Shown: positions 1,422-26,836, numbered from the stretch's first letter. The stretch is 43,121 nt of DNA from a virus (IMGVR_UViG_2529292921_000020); one strand, 5' to 3'. Numbers and translations are program-made. The notes: generated by a model from the sequence alone, not told the origin.

Positions 1422-3893
1422 TTAAAAATCAGCCTGATTCGGGATCAGTTTTTGCCAGATAACTGAAACGTATTTTGCTTGGTAACGGGCGTCATCAAGT
1501 GCATTATGGCGCTCACCTTCGAATGGAATAGCCGTTCTGGCATCGAAGTCTATGGCTTTCCCCAGCTCAACGATTGTGCGTACATCGCGATCGTTGTAGT
1601 AACGCCACGGGCAGGGGATCCCCTGCCGTTCGTATGAACGGCGCAAAATCGTGTTGTCGAAGTTGGCTCCATTTCCCCAGACCTGAACAAAAAATTCACC
1701 GGAGTTTTCGTCGATAAATTCCCGCAATTGTAACAGTGCATCATCTAACGGGATTTCATCGGTCATAATGGCAGATTGCGCTTCGCGTGATTGCTTAAGC
1801 CACCATTTAATGGTGTCCCGATCAATGACCCCGCCAGCAGTTTCCAGATCGATAGTCTTACTAAATTCCGGTCCCATATCTCCGGTTTGCGGATCGAAAA
1901 ATATTGCACCTATTGAGATGATCGGGGCATCAGGATTTTTTCCCATGGTTTCAAGGTCGATCATTAGATGGTCACACGTCCTGCTGGTGGATGTGATTTC
2001 GTGATGACCGTTCACCTTAATTGAGTGATCTGCCGTCTCGCCAGTTTCATTATCGCTATCGTGATGCTGATTGCCGTCAGTGTTCTCCTTGTGTGGATGT
2101 TCAGCGCCTTCCATTTCCTCCGGATCATCTTCCTGAACTTCAACCTGATACTCTTCATCGAATGTTTCCTGGTATGTTGCGTCGCCCATCACCGCGCCAC
2201 AATCAGGGCAGTTGCCGCCGCCGGTCTGACCGCAGGCGGTGCAGACTTTTTCCACTTCCTGTTGCGCCACTGGTTCAGGCTGTTTCGTTTCTGGCTCGTT
2301 TTGTAACGCATTTGGGCTGTTTTGTTCCGCTTTCTGGCCGTTCTGTTCCGTTTCTTGCTGGTTCTGATTCACTGAATCGCGGGTTTCAATCCCCTTCACC
2401 CATTTCGGATCATTCTGGTCGCTAATCCCTGCAACAAATTCTCCGCGAGAGGCAGCAAGCAACTTATCGGCGTCAGGCTGGCTGATATTGGCTGCCTGCA
2501 TAATTTTGTTTACTTCGTCAGCGGTAACTTTTACCGGCTCTGGTTGTGCGGTCGTGTCAGATGCACCAGTATTTTGTTGTGAACCTGAGTATGTACTGTT
2601 TTTGCGGGCGAAATATTCTTCTTTCGTGATTTCAGTAGCCCCGGCAGCCAGCGCCTTATCCAGACCAGAAAGTTTGTTTGCGCGACCGTATTTTTCGCCA
2701 TCCTTGTCGGTGAAGAGGAAGTAGAACGGCCCTTCACGCTCTACAGATGGTTCGACTTCCACTTTGCATTCGGTTTTTTCGTTGTCCGGAATTGCCGTTT
2801 CCACTGCATCAGTTTCTGGTACTGGCGACGAGAGAGTATCAGTTGCGCTCTGATTTCTTCCTTCATCTTCAAACACGCCCTTTGTAGTCAGGTATTCAGT
2901 AATGTATTTGTTCAGTGCCACAGGGTCTTTGTGAATGTCGATCGGACGTTCACGGACAAGGCCAAAAATAGTCTGGCGGTCGTAGCGAAGGGCATCAGGC
3001 TGTTTGCGCATTGATGCCGAGATACGCTTCCAGTCTTCGCGGTCGTTGTCGATAACTTCATTTTTTGCCCAGCGATGGATGCTGCCGTCAATGTTTCCGG
3101 CATCCACATCACCAGGCCAGAGAGCGTAGGCCAGTTCGTCATCCAGTGTTTTCCATGTCTGCTTGTATTCGCGATGAATGGCAGCAATGACCGGGCTGAT
3201 TTTTCCTGTTGAATTTTCAGTGTGCTGTTGATTGGCTCTGGCGCGGGCGAGATCAACAACAGACGTGTATTTTCCGGTTTCCTTGCGTTCACCTTCGCGA
3301 CGTTTTTTCCAGATGCGCATCTCTGCCTGAATTTCGGGCCATTTGGCACCAGGCTTACATTTATGCTTAACCCACCCGATGGCATGCAGCTTAAGCTCCG
3401 GATACATGGCGTTAACTTCTGGCATTTTCATCAACGCTTCAACGATATGTCCGTCGAATGTTGCCATGTCTTCCTGCAACAATTCCTGTGCGCTAATAAC
3501 CATATCAACGGTGATGTTTTCACATGTGTCGAACTTAACCATGACAGCGTTCGGTACTTCAGGGGCCAGCTTGTCAAAAGTGACGTTCATCGGATCTGAT
3601 TCAGTCTCAACCGGGACAAAGGAAGCAGACTCCTCATCCCAGCGGTTTTCCTGCATATATTCAGCATCCCAGGAATCGAGGGCAGGGCGGGGTATGCCGG
3701 GTTTATCCTCACAGACAATAAATTTATAAGCGCAGTCCTGAGCTGCAGGGAATTGCTCCAGAAATTGCCAATGAAATTTTGCGCGTGCGCGACGCTCATC
3801 ACCAGCTTCAATGGCAGTGGCCACCGCAACAGCGCTATCTTCTTTTATGGCCTGTTCATCAGGAATAGCAGCGCAAATAAAGACTTTACTCAT
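1422..3893 (-). CDS. Phage exonuclease with C-terminal DEDDh (DnaQ-like) 3'-5' exonuclease domain; occupies the RecE/Exo VIII position
   Basis: 823-aa ORF; C-terminal ~180 aa carry Exo I (MIDLETMG), Exo II (WGNGANFDNTIL) and Exo III (HNALDDARYQ) motifs; long acidic Q/E-rich N-terminal region; position downstream of xis as for recE in Rac-like prophages. Confidence 0.6.
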   Translation of the reverse strand: MSKVFICAAIPDEQAIKEDSAVAVATAIEAGDERRARAKFHWQFLEQFPAAQDCAYKFIVCEDKPGIPRPALDSWDAEYMQENRWDEESASFVPVETESDPMNVTFDKLAPEVPNAVMVKFDTCENITVDMVISAQELLQEDMATFDGHIVEALMKMPEVNAMYPELKLHAIGWVKHKCKPGAKWPEIQAEMRIWKKRREGERKETGKYTSVVDLARARANQQHTENSTGKISPVIAAIHREYKQTWKTLDDELAYALWPGDVDAGNIDGSIHRWAKNEVIDNDREDWKRISASMRKQPDALRYDRQTIFGLVRERPIDIHKDPVALNKYITEYLTTKGVFEDEGRNQSATDTLSSPVPETDAVETAIPDNEKTECKVEVEPSVEREGPFYFLFTDKDGEKYGRANKLSGLDKALAAGATEITKEEYFARKNSTYSGSQQNTGASDTTAQPEPVKVTADEVNKIMQAANISQPDADKLLAASRGEFVAGISDQNDPKWVKGIETRDSVNQNQQETEQNGQKAEQNSPNALQNEPETKQPEPVAQQEVEKVCTACGQTGGGNCPDCGAVMGDATYQETFDEEYQVEVQEDDPEEMEGAEHPHKENTDGNQHHDSDNETGETADHSIKVNGHHEITSTSRTCDHLMIDLETMGKNPDAPIISIGAIFFDPQTGDMGPEFSKTIDLETAGGVIDRDTIKWWLKQSREAQSAIMTDEIPLDDALLQLREFIDENSGEFFVQVWGNGANFDNTILRRSYERQGIPCPWRYYNDRDVRTIVELGKAIDFDARTAIPFEGERHNALDDARYQAKYVSVIWQKLIPNQADF

Positions 3894-4137
3894 TTTGTTT
3901 TACCTCATTACAGATTTAAGGGTGAACAAATCCCTGCCATTGCTGGCATATAAGAATGAAACCGGATGTTTATTACGGAACTGTTTTAAAGACCTGCCGG
4001 GATTTCGTTATTATCCTGGTGAATAACTTTATCGACCGGGTAACAGTTACCGGGAATTTTCTGTTCGGTTGCTGCAGTCACACACTCCTGCATTGTCCTG
4101 TGAACACTGACTGCAATATCAACTGGCTCTCCGGAAA

Positions 4138-6193
<2,056 letters not shown>

Positions 6194-7764: not shown

Positions 7765-7869
7765 GTTCTTACGCCTCGGGCTGGCTACTTAACCCCTGAC
7801 CACTGCCTGGTAACTCGAAGTATTGCCCTGCATTCTGTGGGGCGGGGTGGGTTGGTATGAAAAGAAGGA

Positions 7870-7906
7870 TACCCATAGGTATTTAAAAAGTAAATACCCA
7901 TGGGTA
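7870..7906. promoter_or_regulatory. OL-like operator pair: TACCCATAGGTA (7870-7881) and perfect palindrome TACCCATGGGTA (7895-7906)
   Basis: Two 12-bp dyad-symmetric sites 25 bp apart, between the 3' end of the leftward repressor gene and the leftward early genes. Confidence 0.5.
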
Positions 7907-7948
7907 AATTTTTGCGGGGTCTTAACTGGTGACTAGTTGTTTGGTGAG

Positions 7949-8367
7949 CTATGATGCGTTTTGTGCTTTCTTTTTACGGATTTCTTCGTAGATCATATTG
8001 TAATACTGTTTTTTCTCTTCAAGAGTTTTTAATAATTTATCCGCTTCACTTTCTGGCAGTTCGTCTAAGAGATCTAAAAAAATACGTTGTCGTGGCGTTA
8101 GAACCCTTGTTTCATAACTGGAGGCTGTGTTCGTTGATGATGAAACGATACCATCCATCCATCCCCGGGGTAACCCAAAGGACTCTTCGATAATCTCCAC
8201 CATATCATCAGCGATCCGTTTTTTCCCTTTTTCCCCTCTGGGTACAACATTCTTGATACATAAGAAGGCTCGCGCCCGATCTTTCTGGCCACGTTAACCG
8301 CTTTACCATCGCATTTCTCATCACGAATTTTGATGAGTTGCTGTCGTCTAAATTCATATTTGTCCAT
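7949..8367 (-). pseudogene. Leftward prophage repressor (RacR/DicA position, HTH N-terminus), split into two overlapping frames by an apparent frameshift in T6/T5 runs at about 8217-8230
   Basis: ORFs 8098-8367 (HTH-like ...AVNVARKIGREPSYVSRML...) and 7949-8203 overlap in different frames; both frames are open across the homopolymer tract, so a 1-nt indel would give one ~140-aa protein. Confidence 0.55.
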
Positions 8368-8467
8368 AGGTAAATAATAGATGCGATTACCGCAAGGTAA
8401 ACAACCTGTGGGTATTGACTTTTGTTTACCTGCGGGTGTTCTTTGCTGTGTTTACTAAGGAGTAGCT
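8368..8467. promoter_or_regulatory. Divergent OR-like control region with repeated GGTAAAC / GTTTACC half-sites
   Basis: 100-bp intergenic region between divergent repressor and Cro-like genes; GGTAAATAA, GGTAAACAA, TGTTTACC, TGTTTACT repeats; TTGACT -35-like hexamer at 8415. Confidence 0.5.
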
Positions 8468-8749
8468 ATGGAAGAATTAAGAATATTTCTCAATTCTCTT
8501 TCGTCAGATGAACAGCGTATGTTTGCATGCGAGTGTGGTACCAGCATCGGTTATCTAAGAAAGGCATTGAGTAAAGGTCAAGTGTTAGGGGCATCGTTAT
8601 GTGTCCTTATTGAGCGAGCCAGTAATGGTGAAGTTACACGTCAGCAACTAAGGCCTTTTGATTGGATGAATATTTGGCCCGAGCTGGAAGATACCAAAAC
8701 GTTAACACAACCACTTTCTAGGAGCTTGATTCATGAAAATCAAGCATGA
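8468..8749 (+). CDS. Cro/YdaS-like small DNA-binding protein
   Basis: 93-aa ORF divergent from the repressor, first gene of the rightward operon; HTH-like segment (ECGTSIGYLRKALSKGQV). Confidence 0.55.
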   Translation: MEELRIFLNSLSSDEQRMFACECGTSIGYLRKALSKGQVLGASLCVLIERASNGEVTRQQLRPFDWMNIWPELEDTKTLTQPLSRSLIHENQA

Positions 8750-9158
8750 ACACATCCGCATGGCGATGAATGTCTGGGCGCATCCGGACGGCGAAAAAGT
8801 GCCGGCTGCGAAAATTACCAAAGCGTATTTCGAGCTGGGAATGACGTTCCCGGAACTGTATGACGACAGCCATCCGGAAGCCCTGGCCCGTAATACCCAG
8901 AAAATTTTCCGTTGGCTGGATAAAGACACCCCTGATGCTGTTGAAAAAATGCAGGCTCTGTTACCGGCGATCGAAAAGGCGATGCCGCCTTTGCTGGTGG
9001 CCCGTATGCGCAGCCACAGTTCTGAATATTACCGTGAGATCGTCGAACGGAGGGATCGGCTGGTGAAGGATGTCGATGATTTTGTTGCGTCAGCGGTTGT
9101 TTTGTATGACCAGATGAATCGCGGCGGCCCGGCAGGGAATGCTGTGGTGATGCACTAA
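8733..9158 (+). CDS. YdaT-like protein
   Basis: 141-aa ORF overlapping the Cro-like gene end; N-terminus MKIKHEHI... and size match my recollection of Rac YdaT. Confidence 0.5.
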   Translation: MKIKHEHIRMAMNVWAHPDGEKVPAAKITKAYFELGMTFPELYDDSHPEALARNTQKIFRWLDKDTPDAVEKMQALLPAIEKAMPPLLVARMRSHSSEYYREIVERRDRLVKDVDDFVASAVVLYDQMNRGGPAGNAVVMH

Positions 9159-9165
9159 AAGCACG

Positions 9166-10143
9166 GTGTTCGGGGGTTTTATGAGCAGCAAGCTTCATGG
9201 TCTTGTCTGGGAAGGGTGCGCCTTCACCGGCATGATCTTATCCAGGGTGGCGGTTATGGCCCGTCTTGCAGACTACAGCAATGACGAGGGCGTGTCATGG
9301 CCTGCCATTGAAACTATCCGGCGTCAGATCGGTGCAAGAAGTGAATCCACAGTGAAATCGGCTATTGCAGAACTGGCGAAAGAGGGCTGGCTGACGAAGG
9401 AAGAGCGTAAGGTCGGTGGGCGTAATGTAAGCAATATCTATCGGCTTAATGTGGAAAAACTCGAAGCAGCTGCGGCGGCGGCGCGTGAGTCATATAAACC
9501 GAAAAGAAAAATTAGCCCGGCAAAAAATGACCCGTTAACAGTTGACCCGTCAAATATTGACCCCTCAACGGTTGACCCGTCAAATTTTGATGGATCAACT
9601 GTTGATAAAAAACTGCCGATTAGGGGGGCGATGATTGACCCCGATCCGTCAGTATTAAAACCTGATCCGTCAGATAAAAGATCTTCTTGTCCGGACGCTT
9701 CGCAACCGGACCCGCAGACGGCTGAACAGGATTTTTTAACCCGACACCCTGACGCGGTTGTGTTCAGTGCGAAAAAACGCCAGTGGGGAAGTCAGGAAGA
9801 TTTGGTGTGCGCACAGTGGATCTGGGGACGAATCGTGAGTCTTTACGAGCAGGCGGCCAGCTATGATGGCGAGATCGCTAGACCGAAAGAACCCAACTGG
9901 ACAGCATGGGCCAATGACGTTCGCACAATGCGGATGCTGGATGGCAGAACTCACAGACAAATTTGTGAAATGTTTGGGCGTCTCCAGCGGGATTCGTTCT
10001 GGGTAAAAAACATCATGAGTCCGGCAAAACTCCGGGAAAAATGGGATGAACTGGTTATCCGCCTGGGGCGTTCGCCTGCGCAGCGTTGCGTGAATCACAT
10101 TTCTGAACCGGACACTGAAATTCCGCCGGGCTTCAGGGGGTAA
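9166..10143 (+). CDS. Phage replication initiation protein (winged-helix N-terminal domain) with internal origin iterons
   Basis: 325-aa ORF; N-terminal HTH-type segment (SWPAIETIRRQIGARSESTVKSAIAELAKEGWL); iterons inside the coding region as in lambda O. Confidence 0.65.
   Translation: MFGGFMSSKLHGLVWEGCAFTGMILSRVAVMARLADYSNDEGVSWPAIETIRRQIGARSESTVKSAIAELAKEGWLTKEERKVGGRNVSNIYRLNVEKLEAAAAAARESYKPKRKISPAKNDPLTVDPSNIDPSTVDPSNFDGSTVDKKLPIRGAMIDPDPSVLKPDPSDKRSSCPDASQPDPQTAEQDFLTRHPDAVVFSAKKRQWGSQEDLVCAQWIWGRIVSLYEQAASYDGEIARPKEPNWTAWANDVRTMRMLDGRTHRQICEMFGRLQRDSFWVKNIMSPAKLREKWDELVIRLGRSPAQRCVNHISEPDTEIPPGFRG
9525..9620 (+). repeat. Putative replication origin: four TGACCC(G/C) iterons at about 15-bp spacing plus the palindrome TCAACTGTTGA
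   Basis: aatGACCCGTtaacagtTGACCCGTcaaatatTGACCCCTcaacggtTGACCCGTcaaat; encodes a repetitive peptide (LTVDPSNIDPSTVDPSNFD). Confidence 0.6.
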
Positions 10144-10183
10144 GTGTTAATTTCTGGTCATGAGGTAATTTTCAGGAGGGCTT

Positions 10184-10606
10184 GTGGCAAAAGTTTTTAC
10201 ACAAGAAGAGCGGGAAAAAATTAAAGGGCAGGTTGTTGAACTCGTACGCCAGAGTGGGCGCGAGACGTTACGACAACTGGAAACTAAAACTGGGGCAACA
10301 AGATATCTGATGAGCGTTCTGGCCAGAGAGCTGGTTGCCAGTGGCGATGTATACAACTCTGGTTACGGGTTATTCCCGTCTGAACAGGCGCGTAAGGACT
10401 GGCAAAATGCCCGTAAAAAGCTCTCAAGGGCAAAGCTGAAGAAACCATCTGCGGTTGATCCGGACCTTATCTGGTCATTACCTGACGGAGAAATACGTCG
10501 CTACGACAGGCGTCAGAACATAATCTGTCGCGAGTGCCGGAAGAGCGAAGCTATGCAGCGCGTACTGGCGTTTTATCAGGGGAATTTTGAGGAGGTGGTG
10601 CGGTGA
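10184..10606 (+). CDS. Hypothetical early-region phage protein
   Basis: 140-aa ORF after the replication gene; no recognisable motif. Confidence 0.4.
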   Translation: MAKVFTQEEREKIKGQVVELVRQSGRETLRQLETKTGATRYLMSVLARELVASGDVYNSGYGLFPSEQARKDWQNARKKLSRAKLKKPSAVDPDLIWSLPDGEIRRYDRRQNIICRECRKSEAMQRVLAFYQGNFEEVVR

Positions 10607-10849
10607 GTGAATCAAAATGCCAGGTTAATGGCAACAAGATAGAACCATGTGCAGCACTGGCAAAGTCCCTTGAGCGTGATGCTGAATACACGATGCGAAA
10701 AGGTCTGCTGATATACAAAATCTGAAATGAGAGTTTAACTCGCGGTCCTGATTTTGTGATGTTGCGTTCCGGTGAATTTTCTAAATTACCAGTTCGGGTT
10801 TCATTTTGTCCGTTCTGTGGTGAAAGTCTGAAAACGTGGGAGAACAGAA

Positions 10850-17208: not shown

Positions 17209-17284
17209 GGCCCTTTAGCTCAGTGGTGAGAGCGAGCGACTCATAATCGCCAGGTCGCTGGTTCAAATCCAGCAAGGGCCACCA
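17209..17284 (+). tRNA. tRNA with CAT anticodon (Met or lysidine-modified Ile2; ileZ-like position), CCA encoded
   Basis: Hand-folded cloverleaf: acceptor GGCCCTT / AAGGGCC, anticodon loop CTCATAA, T-loop TTCAAAT, 3' ACCA. Confidence 0.8.
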
Positions 17285-17285
17285 A

Positions 17286-17361
17286 CCGCCACTAGCCATC
17301 AGGAAAGAGCGTCAACCCTTTAAGTTGAGTGTGCGAGGTTCGAGTCCCCGGTGGTGGTCCA
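17286..17361 (+). tRNA. tRNA-like gene with atypical D-arm and anticodon loop (argN-like position); anticodon uncertain
   Basis: Acceptor CCGCCAC / GTGGTGG (one G-U), T-arm CGAGG-TTCGAGT-CCCCG, 3' TCCA; anticodon loop reads CCTTTAA with C at position 33. Confidence 0.5.
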
Positions 17362-17374
17362 TTATCGGTATTCT

Positions 17375-17448
17375 GCGTTGTTAGCTCAGCAGGACAGAGC
17401 AATTGCCTTCTAAGCAATCGGTCACTGGTTCGACTCCAGTACAACGCG
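17375..17448 (+). tRNA. tRNA-Arg (anticodon TCT, reads AGA); CCA not encoded
   Basis: Acceptor GCGTTGT / ACAACGC, D-arm AGCTCAGCAGGACAGAGC, anticodon loop CTTCTAA, T-loop TTCGACT. Confidence 0.8.
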
Positions 17449-17576
17449 CTACACTTATTTTCCCGGCTCGCTTTTGCGGGCCTTTTTTTTAAATGTCTCA
17501 CAATTCAGACGGTTGACAGTTGTCTGTTTTGCGGGGAGTTTGTTAAGTAAGCGACTCGTCAGAACCGTATTGATAT

Positions 17577-26272: not shown

Positions 26273-26836
26273 GTGCTGACAACGCAAAAACGAAAATTTG
26301 CGCTGGCGCTCATGTCCGGGAAAAACAAAACAGCGTCAGCCATTGCCGCCGGTTATTCGGCGAAGACCGCCAGGGTTAAAGGCTCGCAGCTGGCAAAAGA
26401 TCCGGAGGTGCTTGCGTTTATAGCCCGTAAACAATGCGAGACGGTGGAGGTGGATGAGGTTCCTGTTTACCGGCAGAAAAAATCAGAGCAGGAGGATAAA
26501 CCCCGTCGCCGTGAGGCGGCTGCAATACCACAGCCGGACGAAAACAATCCGGAGATGCCACCGTCCGCGGTGATGTCTCCTGGTATTGAATATATGGAGG
26601 ATGGTCTTCCCGATCCGGTGAAAGCCATGGGGCGGATCCTGGTGGAAAACCTCTGCATTGATCCGAAACTGGCACTGGATGCGGCCTGGCGTCTGGCGCA
26701 GTTCACGCACCATAAAAAAGGGGATACCGGGAAAAAATCGGCAAAAGGTGATGCCGCGAAAAAAGCGGCTAACCGTTTTGCGGTGCCACCGCCACCCCGA
26801 CTGGTGGTGAATAACGATAATGAGGGCAACGGATGA
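26273..26836 (+). CDS. Terminase small subunit
   Basis: 187-aa ORF with N-terminal HTH (KTASAIAAGYSAKTARVKGSQLA) directly upstream of and overlapping the large subunit. Confidence 0.8.
   Translation: MLTTQKRKFALALMSGKNKTASAIAAGYSAKTARVKGSQLAKDPEVLAFIARKQCETVEVDEVPVYRQKKSEQEDKPRRREAAAIPQPDENNPEMPPSAVMSPGIEYMEDGLPDPVKAMGRILVENLCIDPKLALDAAWRLAQFTHHKKGDTGKKSAKGDAAKKAANRFAVPPPPRLVVNNDNEGNG

Follow-up and report, generated by a model that had tools for sequence, protein, structure and literature searches.

A probable lambda-type replication origin embedded in the O-like initiator gene of an Escherichia coli lambdoid prophage

The DNA analysed here (IMGVR_UViG_2529292921_000020; 43,121 nucleotides (nt), hereafter the window) is a lambdoid prophage that is 99.9% identical to the prophage located beside ompW in E. 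coli O127:H6 E2348/69, and its early region contains a gene for an O-like replication initiator of 320 amino acids (aa), which occupies positions 9181–10143 on the + strand. The segment at approximately 9490–9690, within the part of this gene that encodes a linker predicted to be disordered, is in all probability the replication origin of the prophage. This reading is based on the position of the segment, a phased array of repeats, the occurrence of a 15-bp array throughout the initiator family, selection acting on the DNA itself, and co-variation of the repeats with the DNA-binding domain of the initiator; it also draws on the combination of the N-terminal domain and the array with varied C-termini and neighbours (including lambda P), copy-number changes in steps of 15 bp, and the lambda paradigm. 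By function and layout, the segment appears to be a lambda-type origin in an O-like gene, an expected arrangement that should not surprise a specialist.

Four copies of TGACCC(G/C) were identified at 9528, 9543, 9558, and 9573, and a fifth copy is present at 9636. The first four had been described in an earlier note on this DNA as lying about 15 bp apart; the spacing is exactly 15 bp. Pairs phased as TGACCCS-N8-TGACCCS were observed three times, compared with an expectation of 0.01 from dinucleotide shuffles, and Tandem Repeats Finder detected a period of 15 (5 copies) and a period of 30 (84% matches). These copies are parts of a longer unit, namely a 12-bp dyad, TTGACCC(G/C)TCAA (TTGAC-CC-GTCAA), and five to six such units, rather than four repeats, are arranged between 9527 and 9613. 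On the + strand, unit 1 (9527–9538, ATGACCCGTTAA) is a degenerate match to the motif, whereas units 2 (9542–9553, TTGACCCGTCAA), 3 (9557–9568, TTGACCCCTCAA), and 4 (9572–9583, TTGACCCGTCAA) are exact. Unit 5 (9587–9598) has an inverted centre, reading TTGATGGATCAA on the + strand and TTGATCCATCAA on the − strand, to which it is assigned, and is followed by a remnant unit with an A-run (TTGATAAAAAAC, 9602–9613, + strand). To the left of the array is an A-rich leader (9490–9526) with an A+T content of 68%. The 30 nt with the highest A+T content in the gene (9582–9612, 77% A+T) are formed by unit 5 together with the remnant unit, at the right-hand end of the array; this segment is a candidate for the site of unwinding.

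The units in the window are flanked as (A/G)TTGACCC(G/C)TCAA and separated by alternating ATW and CNG spacers. A 30-bp super-period with alternating centres or spacers was found both in the window and in many relatives, alternate sites being 30 bp apart or, by estimate, roughly three helical turns, which suggests that pairs of sites may be the working unit. The palindrome that had been reported to follow the array, TCAACTGTTGA (9595–9605), is present, but it is not a separate element: it represents the unit-to-unit junction (...TCAA-CNG-TTGA...) and also occurs at 9535 and 9565, i.e. every 30 bp. A scan of 7800–10700 for promoters and terminators yielded nothing within the array, and the possibility that the TTGAC units serve as −35 boxes was dropped for this reason.

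The limits of 9525–9620 proposed for the origin in the earlier note are essentially right for the array, but the functional region appears to run past 9620 into a second conserved element at 9634–9683. This element consists of ATTGACCCC-GATCCGTCAG, an A+T-rich spacer, TGATCCGTCAG, and then ATAAAAGATC, and its core (ATTGACCCCGATCCGTCAG ... TGATCCGTCAG, 9634–9673) contains two GATCCGTCAG copies placed around the spacer. Its first site, ATTGACCCC-GATCCGTCAGT (9634–9653, + strand), is iteron-like, and its second site, CCTGATCCGTCAGATAAAAGATC (9661–9683, + strand), lies 21 bp from the first across the spacer. The codons of the first site are nearly fixed in 37 relatives (GAT in 36, CCG in 32, TCA in 33, and GTA in 34 of the 37), and the A+T-rich spacer that separates the two GATCCGTCAG sites is kept across genera. 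Four GATC (Dam) sites were found within 91 bp, one in unit 5 of the array (9593), one in the first site (9643), and two in the second (9664 and 9680); two of them lie inside GATCCGTCAG and are kept across genera in fixed codons. The cluster may be linked to control by Dam and SeqA, but it is treated as a lead only, because GATC clusters of comparable density are found in other parts of the window, which as a whole has fewer GATC sites than expected (146 compared with 176).

The gene that contains these elements occupies the O position of the early-right operon, after the repressor gene and the genes for a cro-like protein (YdaS) and a cII-like protein (YdaT). Its open reading frame (ORF) opens with a GTG at 9166 (325 aa), and the RefSeq start for the identical gene is the ATG at 9181. 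Although RefSeq labels the product only as a ‘helix-turn-helix domain-containing protein’ (WP_000095665/WP_000095673), aa 6–325 of the ORF align with positions 1–298 of the 298 positions of phrog_391, ‘replication initiation O-like’, with an E-value of 2.2e-115. The Pfam domain HTH_36 was detected in the N-terminus (aa 30–76 of the 325-aa ORF; 27.9 bits) together with a match to DnaD_N that was below the Pfam threshold, and no plasmid Rep family profile in Pfam or NCBIfam matched the protein. Of 5,426 complete E. coli genomes, 3,265 contain a match to the gene, and in 1,514 of these at least 80% of its length is covered.

The layout resembles that of the lambda origin, which consists of iterons and an AT-rich tract in the middle of gene O and in which synonymous iteron mutations abolish replication; lambda has 4 iterons and the Shiga toxin (Stx) phages have 6, and the O protein is longer accordingly (PMC7466680). 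Like ori-lambda and the six-iteron origins of the Stx phages 933W and P27, the array lies within the central part of the pR operon's initiator gene. In these phages, as apparently in the window, repeats that have internal dyad symmetry and are bound by the initiator are followed by A+T-rich DNA, and the repeats encode a linker that joins an N-terminal domain for DNA binding to a C-terminal domain for partner binding. The number of iterons likewise differs among relatives and changes the length of the protein. The two systems differ in the form of the repeats: lambda iterons are about 19 bp in length and more widely spaced, whereas those of the window are 12-bp units at a 15-bp period, which abut one another with 3-bp spacers and are found in either orientation. 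A further feature of the window is its conserved pair of sites that contain GATC.

Gene 15 of phi80 (JX871397) provides a second comparison. The C-terminal domains of the two initiators are homologous (36% identity, E = 5e-26, gp15 aa 174–285), the homologous region begins at the same motif, AAAAGATCTTC(G/T)TCCG, and the four annotated gp15 sites (nt 365–441 of gene 15) correspond in relative position to the array of the window. The remaining parts are different: the N-terminal domain of gp15 is Phage_rep_O (88 bits to PF04492) rather than HTH_36, its sites are of the GGGAA/TTCCC type with a spacing of about 21 bp and are unrelated to those of the window, gene 15 is followed by the P-like gene 14, and gp15 lacks the DnaT-like tail described below. 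The initiator of the window thus appears to be a mosaic sibling of phi80 gene 15, related to it through the C-terminal domain.

The N-terminal family of the window was found in the initiators of SfII, SfIV, phiP27, vB_EcoM-720R4, and Klebsiella phage 1 LV-2017, which are annotated as ‘primosomal protein I’ or ‘replication protein O’. In tblastn searches, the N-terminal 169 aa of the window share 46–56% identity with these proteins, SfII, SfIV, and phiP27 being represented by such protein matches only; for 720R4 and LV-2017, identity over the full protein is 59–63%. In the DNA of the latter two phages, the 15-bp array recurs with a TGAC(N)C(N)TCA core, as does the GATCCGTCAG pair downstream of it, whereas the units of these phages have TCTGACNCNTCAAAA flanks, unlike those of the window. 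No initiator with more than 56% identity to the N-terminal subtype of the window was found among the sequenced phages of the collection, and this subtype is known only from prophages. A winged-helix initiator that binds, or in the window would bind, tandem repeats beside an unwinding region, and a repeat specificity that co-evolves with the initiator, are also features of iteron plasmids (pSC101, P1, F, R6K, and RK2); unlike the plasmid systems, the iterons of the window reside inside the initiator coding sequence and in a phage early operon, and the initiator has no match to plasmid Rep proteins.

That the sites bound by the initiator serve regulation instead of initiation, through autorepression by a roadblock, handcuffing control of copy number, or titration, with the start site located elsewhere, is the strongest of the competing explanations but is unlikely. 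The sites do lie within a transcribed gene and no long A+T-rich tract is present, and iterons of plasmids play both initiation and regulatory roles. However, the early region contains no further tandem array or repeat cluster, the array occupies the position at which the origins of lambda and phi80 have been mapped or annotated, it is abutted by the 30 nt with the highest A+T content in the gene, and the retention of the A+T-rich spacer across genera also speaks for an origin.

To characterize selection on the array, 55 related loci were collected with one genome per species, providing 44 non-redundant genes that encode the same N-terminal domain and originate from Edwardsiella, Erwinia, Mixta, Proteus, Providencia, Yersinia, Serratia, Gilliamella, Tatumella, Kosakonia, Enterobacter, and others. 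An array with a 15-bp period was found at nt 300–480 of the gene in all 44 (2–9 units each), so that the absence of the repeats from orthologous initiators, which would have spoken against an origin, was not seen; nearly all relatives have an A-run after the array. When 195 units are pooled, their information profile reveals a 10-bp dyad, TGAC-NN-GTCA (T-G-A-(C)-N-N-(G)-T-C-A), in which the third codon positions 3 and 12 of the unit are among the most conserved columns (1.5–1.6 bits), and the central codon varies freely among Pro, Ala, Thr, and Gly. The first Ser of the unit (codon 1) is encoded by TCT in 94% of cases in the array and in 9% elsewhere in the same genes, and the second Ser (codon 4) by TCA in 93 and 15%, respectively; the corresponding values are 82 and 38% for GAC as the Asp codon and 100 and 65% for AAA as the Lys codon. 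As a control, 36 degenerate columns of the N-terminal domain with an amino acid conserved in at least 90% were examined in the same 44 genes; the share of the top codon in these columns has a median of 50% and a maximum of 76%, and none reaches 90%. Synonymous sites are thus frozen in the array, which encodes a linker predicted to be disordered, and randomized in the conserved DNA-binding domain.

Changes in the number and orientation of the units were also found. E. coli alleles with 88–92% identity (P0002–P0019) encode proteins of 320, 315, 310, and 305 aa, and all changes are in the array, where deletions of 5, 10, and 15 aa (15-bp steps) bring the iteron number to between approximately 2 and 6; Salmonella alleles contain additional units. 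Inverted units, represented by TTGAGGGGTCAA in Edwardsiella and Erwinia and by the unit at 9587 in the window, encode VEGST or FDGST instead of VDPSN and present the same DNA site on the other strand. Taken together, the comparisons indicate that the repeats are conserved at the level of DNA rather than at that of the peptide.

These data bear on the proposal that the DNA repeat is a mere footprint of a flexible DPSxx pentapeptide linker generated by slippage and has no function as DNA. As the earlier note had stated, the repeats do lie inside the initiator coding sequence (9181–10143) and encode a repetitive linker; the peptide encoded by the array, DPLTV-DPSNI-DPSTV-DPSNF-DGSTV, is a regular pentapeptide repeat in a region predicted to be disordered, and its copy number varies by whole units. 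Against this stand the nearly fixed synonymous codons, which differ between the two Ser positions (TCT and TCA) in units whose central amino acid is free, the randomized synonymous sites in the conserved domain of the same genes, the inverted units that keep the DNA site and alter the peptide, the 23-bp period of sister families, which cannot yield a peptide repeat, and the dyad symmetry of the units, which peptides do not need. We therefore consider a purely peptide-level origin of the repeats very improbable.

The type of repeat follows the N-terminal domain of the initiator. In HannyBb, mEp460_ev081, and PhiR42_1, the C-terminal half of the gene is 86% identical to that of the window at the DNA level and the N-terminus is unrelated; at the position of the array, these records contain a 23-bp repeat, which cannot be a peptide repeat because 23 bp is not a multiple of three. 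Two loci of another HTH_36 branch (L017 and L023) have ATTCACCAGG-type repeats, and a diverged branch of the N-terminal family of the window has a different dyad repeat, CCTCCAGAATCTGGAGG (nt 345–480 in L038 and nt 340–480 in L053 and L054). The main family, but not the window itself, has a CAGAATCTGG core in its second element. Conversely, the N-terminus and array of the window type are joined to at least three types of C-terminus and to many neighbours. The next gene is a lambda P homologue in L006, L007, L026, and L038 (E-values of 1e-51 to 1e-58), which form a classical O-P module, and genes for a DnaC/IstB-like ATPase, DUF977, PerC-like, and KilA-N proteins, and a methylase are found downstream at other loci. 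The upstream neighbours also vary, being YdaS/YdaT in the window and YmfL/YmfM in phage 720R4.

The array is thus inherited with the N-terminal domain only. Because it is tied to this domain while the neighbours change, neighbouring genes and host factors are excluded as the source of the binder, leaving the winged helix of the initiator; the protein that binds the repeats is presumably this domain. A role for another protein, such as the DUF977/Ren-like winged-helix protein, the cII-like YdaT, or a host factor, might be considered since several DNA-binding proteins are encoded beside the initiator gene, but it has hardly any likelihood, as the array travels with the N-terminal domain while both neighbours change and, within the one host E. 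coli, phages whose initiators have different N-termini carry different repeats. Overall, the earlier comparison with lambda ori in gene O gains computational support from the operon position, the linker, the array in 44 genes, the frozen codons, and the domain-specific repeats.

One related record, L063 (NZ_CP148542.1; 15,977 bp, circular, deposited as a plasmid), contains nothing but regions of a related prophage, namely those for immunity and replication, the nin-like region, and that for lysis. It matches the window exactly in its N-terminal domain and iterons, but its initiator gene is broken by probable homopolymer errors; the record could represent either a natural replicon of the lambda-dv type or an artefact of assembly and was not used as evidence. 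In a search for natural plasmids carrying the module, the matches proved to be prophages on megaplasmids or mis-binned chromosomal records.

An AlphaFold model of the initiator, built from 52 homologues, places the elements described above within the domain structure of the protein. The N-terminal winged-helix DNA-binding domain (aa 1–104, encoded by 9181–9492 on the + strand; predicted local distance difference test score (pLDDT) 74–87) is predicted to contain helices at residues 3–13, 20–31, 43–50, and 55–67, a beta hairpin at 71–89, and a further helix at 91–104. A linker predicted to be disordered (aa 109–177, pLDDT below 50) coincides with the array and the second element, and it is followed by a helical C-terminal domain (aa 178–297, 9712–10071, + strand; pLDDT 70–88), which is the domain homologous to that of phi80 gp15, and by a disordered tail. 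A Foldseek search with the C-terminal domain returned nothing informative.

The C-terminal tail, ...VNHISEPDTEIPPGFRG (10081–10140, + strand), closely copies the final 21 residues of E. coli DnaT. It matches positions 159–179 of the NCBIfam DnaT model, and the matches to PDB entries 2ru8, 6aep, and 9zbt_D are confined to it. Since the similarity covers these last 21 residues only and scores 16.7 bits against an NCBIfam cut-off of 201, the protein does not belong to the DnaT (primosomal protein I) family, and the label ‘primosomal protein I’ on relatives is attributable to the tail. Among the loci examined, initiators with a DnaT-like tail are not followed by a loader gene in the window and in the HannyBb, mEp460_ev081, and PhiR42_1 records, and they are followed by a DnaC-like gene in POCJ13, L017, L053, and, for a near-identical allele, L063, in which genes for a DnaC/IstB-like ATPase and a DUF1627 protein (2637–4198, about 1.55 kb) lie between the initiator gene and the DUF977/Ren-like gene. 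Where the tail is of the W-x-x-x-W type, lambda P follows. These associations suggest that the DnaT-like tail may be the contact to DnaC/DnaB or the primosome; the partner of DnaT residues 159–179 is not assigned in PMC13377028 or PMC4132743.

From these features, a route of initiator binding, unwinding, origin firing, and helicase loading can be proposed. Derepression would lead to rightward early transcription and to production of the 320-aa initiator, whose N-terminal winged-helix domains would bind as dimers to the five to six packed 12-bp dyads and to the two spaced GATCCGTCAG sites. The bound dimers would form an O-some-like nucleoprotein complex, which may strain and open the neighbouring A+T-rich DNA, either at 9582–9612 or in the spacer at 9652–9662. 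The helical C-terminal domain and the DnaT-like tail would then recruit DnaB, the helicase of the host; the most likely route is by way of host DnaC or the primosome, because the phage has no P or DnaC-like gene. In a more specific and rather doubtful version, an ‘initiator-solo’ origin, the winged-helix initiator would polymerize on the 15-bp dyads, its DnaT tail would feed into the host DnaC/DnaB or PriA-PriB-DnaT restart machinery without a loader, and, through the GATC pair, firing would respond to Dam methylation or SeqA.

Several points weigh against a lambda-type origin and temper the confidence placed in it. The A+T-rich segment is short, with 30 nt at 77% A+T and 40-nt windows that reach only 33–38% GC, and is much shorter than the A+T-rich tract of lambda. 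The N-terminal domain, HTH_36, is not that of lambda O, and no match to Phage_rep_O (PF04492, the lambda O family) was obtained at the Pfam gathering score. Foldseek retrieved for this domain only generic dimeric winged-helix regulators of the MarR/ArsR/PadR type with a weak E-value (~7e-3), matches that fit one dimer per dyad but are no proof of it. The initiator gene is not followed by a P gene as in lambda, nor is there a gene 14 or DnaC-like helicase-loader gene directly downstream, the next gene being DUF977/Ren-like; for this reason, recruitment of the helicase is the least certain step of the proposed route and is conjectural. Some close alleles (P0015) retain only about two tandem units. 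The binomial P-values for codon use overstate independence, as the units and the genes are phylogenetically related, although the direction and size of the effect are still clear. Finally, a literature search with the exact motif TTGACCCGTCAA retrieved unrelated papers only, none of which presents it as a phage element. Nor was an account of the origin of this initiator family found in the literature on non-lambdoid Stx replication regions, SfII/SfIV, and phi80/Lula, within a coverage that is thin for older work, where a prior mention is possible.

The gene order of the prophage is integrase, excisionase, RecE-like exonuclease, dicB, repressor, cro-like (YdaS), cII-like (YdaT), initiator, DUF977 gene, Q, lysis, head, and tail. 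The DUF977/Ren-like gene (10184–10606, + strand; Pfam, PHROGs, and RefSeq) begins 41 nt after the end of the initiator gene (10143–10184) and occupies the position expected for P or a DnaC-like loader. The repressor-like gene (7949–8367, − strand; phrog_5736) is split into two overlapping ORFs, and a homopolymer run at 8219–8224 is 6 nt rather than 7 nt long; the corresponding protein has 139 aa in E2348/69 and elppa4, and the split represents either a real frameshift or a sequencing error. Genes for tRNA-Met (CAT), tRNA-Lys (TTT), and tRNA-Arg (TCT) are located at 17209–17449 in the late-regulatory region. In the E2348/69 annotation, the corresponding region downstream of the Q antiterminator gene contains tRNA-Ile and tRNA-Arg genes and an ISEc13 insertion, which is probably missing from the window because the E2348/69 match covers only 89% of the query. 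Among other tandem repeats, a 162-bp repeat (3.3 copies, 95% identical) is present at 32293–32825 within an 893-aa ORF (30610–33291) in the head-gene region, and short repeats were found at 2280–2355 (21 bp × 3.7; inside the RecE-like exonuclease gene, as judged by the coordinate offset to the E2348/69 annotation) and 26716–26769 (27 bp × 2).

Naming the gene as an initiator with an internal origin improves the annotation of prophages, and the repeat sequence provides a route to the prediction of replication specificity and incompatibility groups. The family is also a clean natural case of a doubly constrained coding sequence, which specifies both a peptide linker and protein-binding DNA, and can be used to benchmark methods that recognize overlapping functional elements by the conservation of synonymous sites. 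Of the loose ends, the loader-less initiator with its DnaT tail is the most interesting: its mimicry of DnaT and the lack of a loader gene open the way to tests of how the host helicase is recruited and of what the DnaT C-terminus does, and, if the initiator does act on the host machinery without a loader of its own, the tail would reveal what the C-terminus of DnaT binds.

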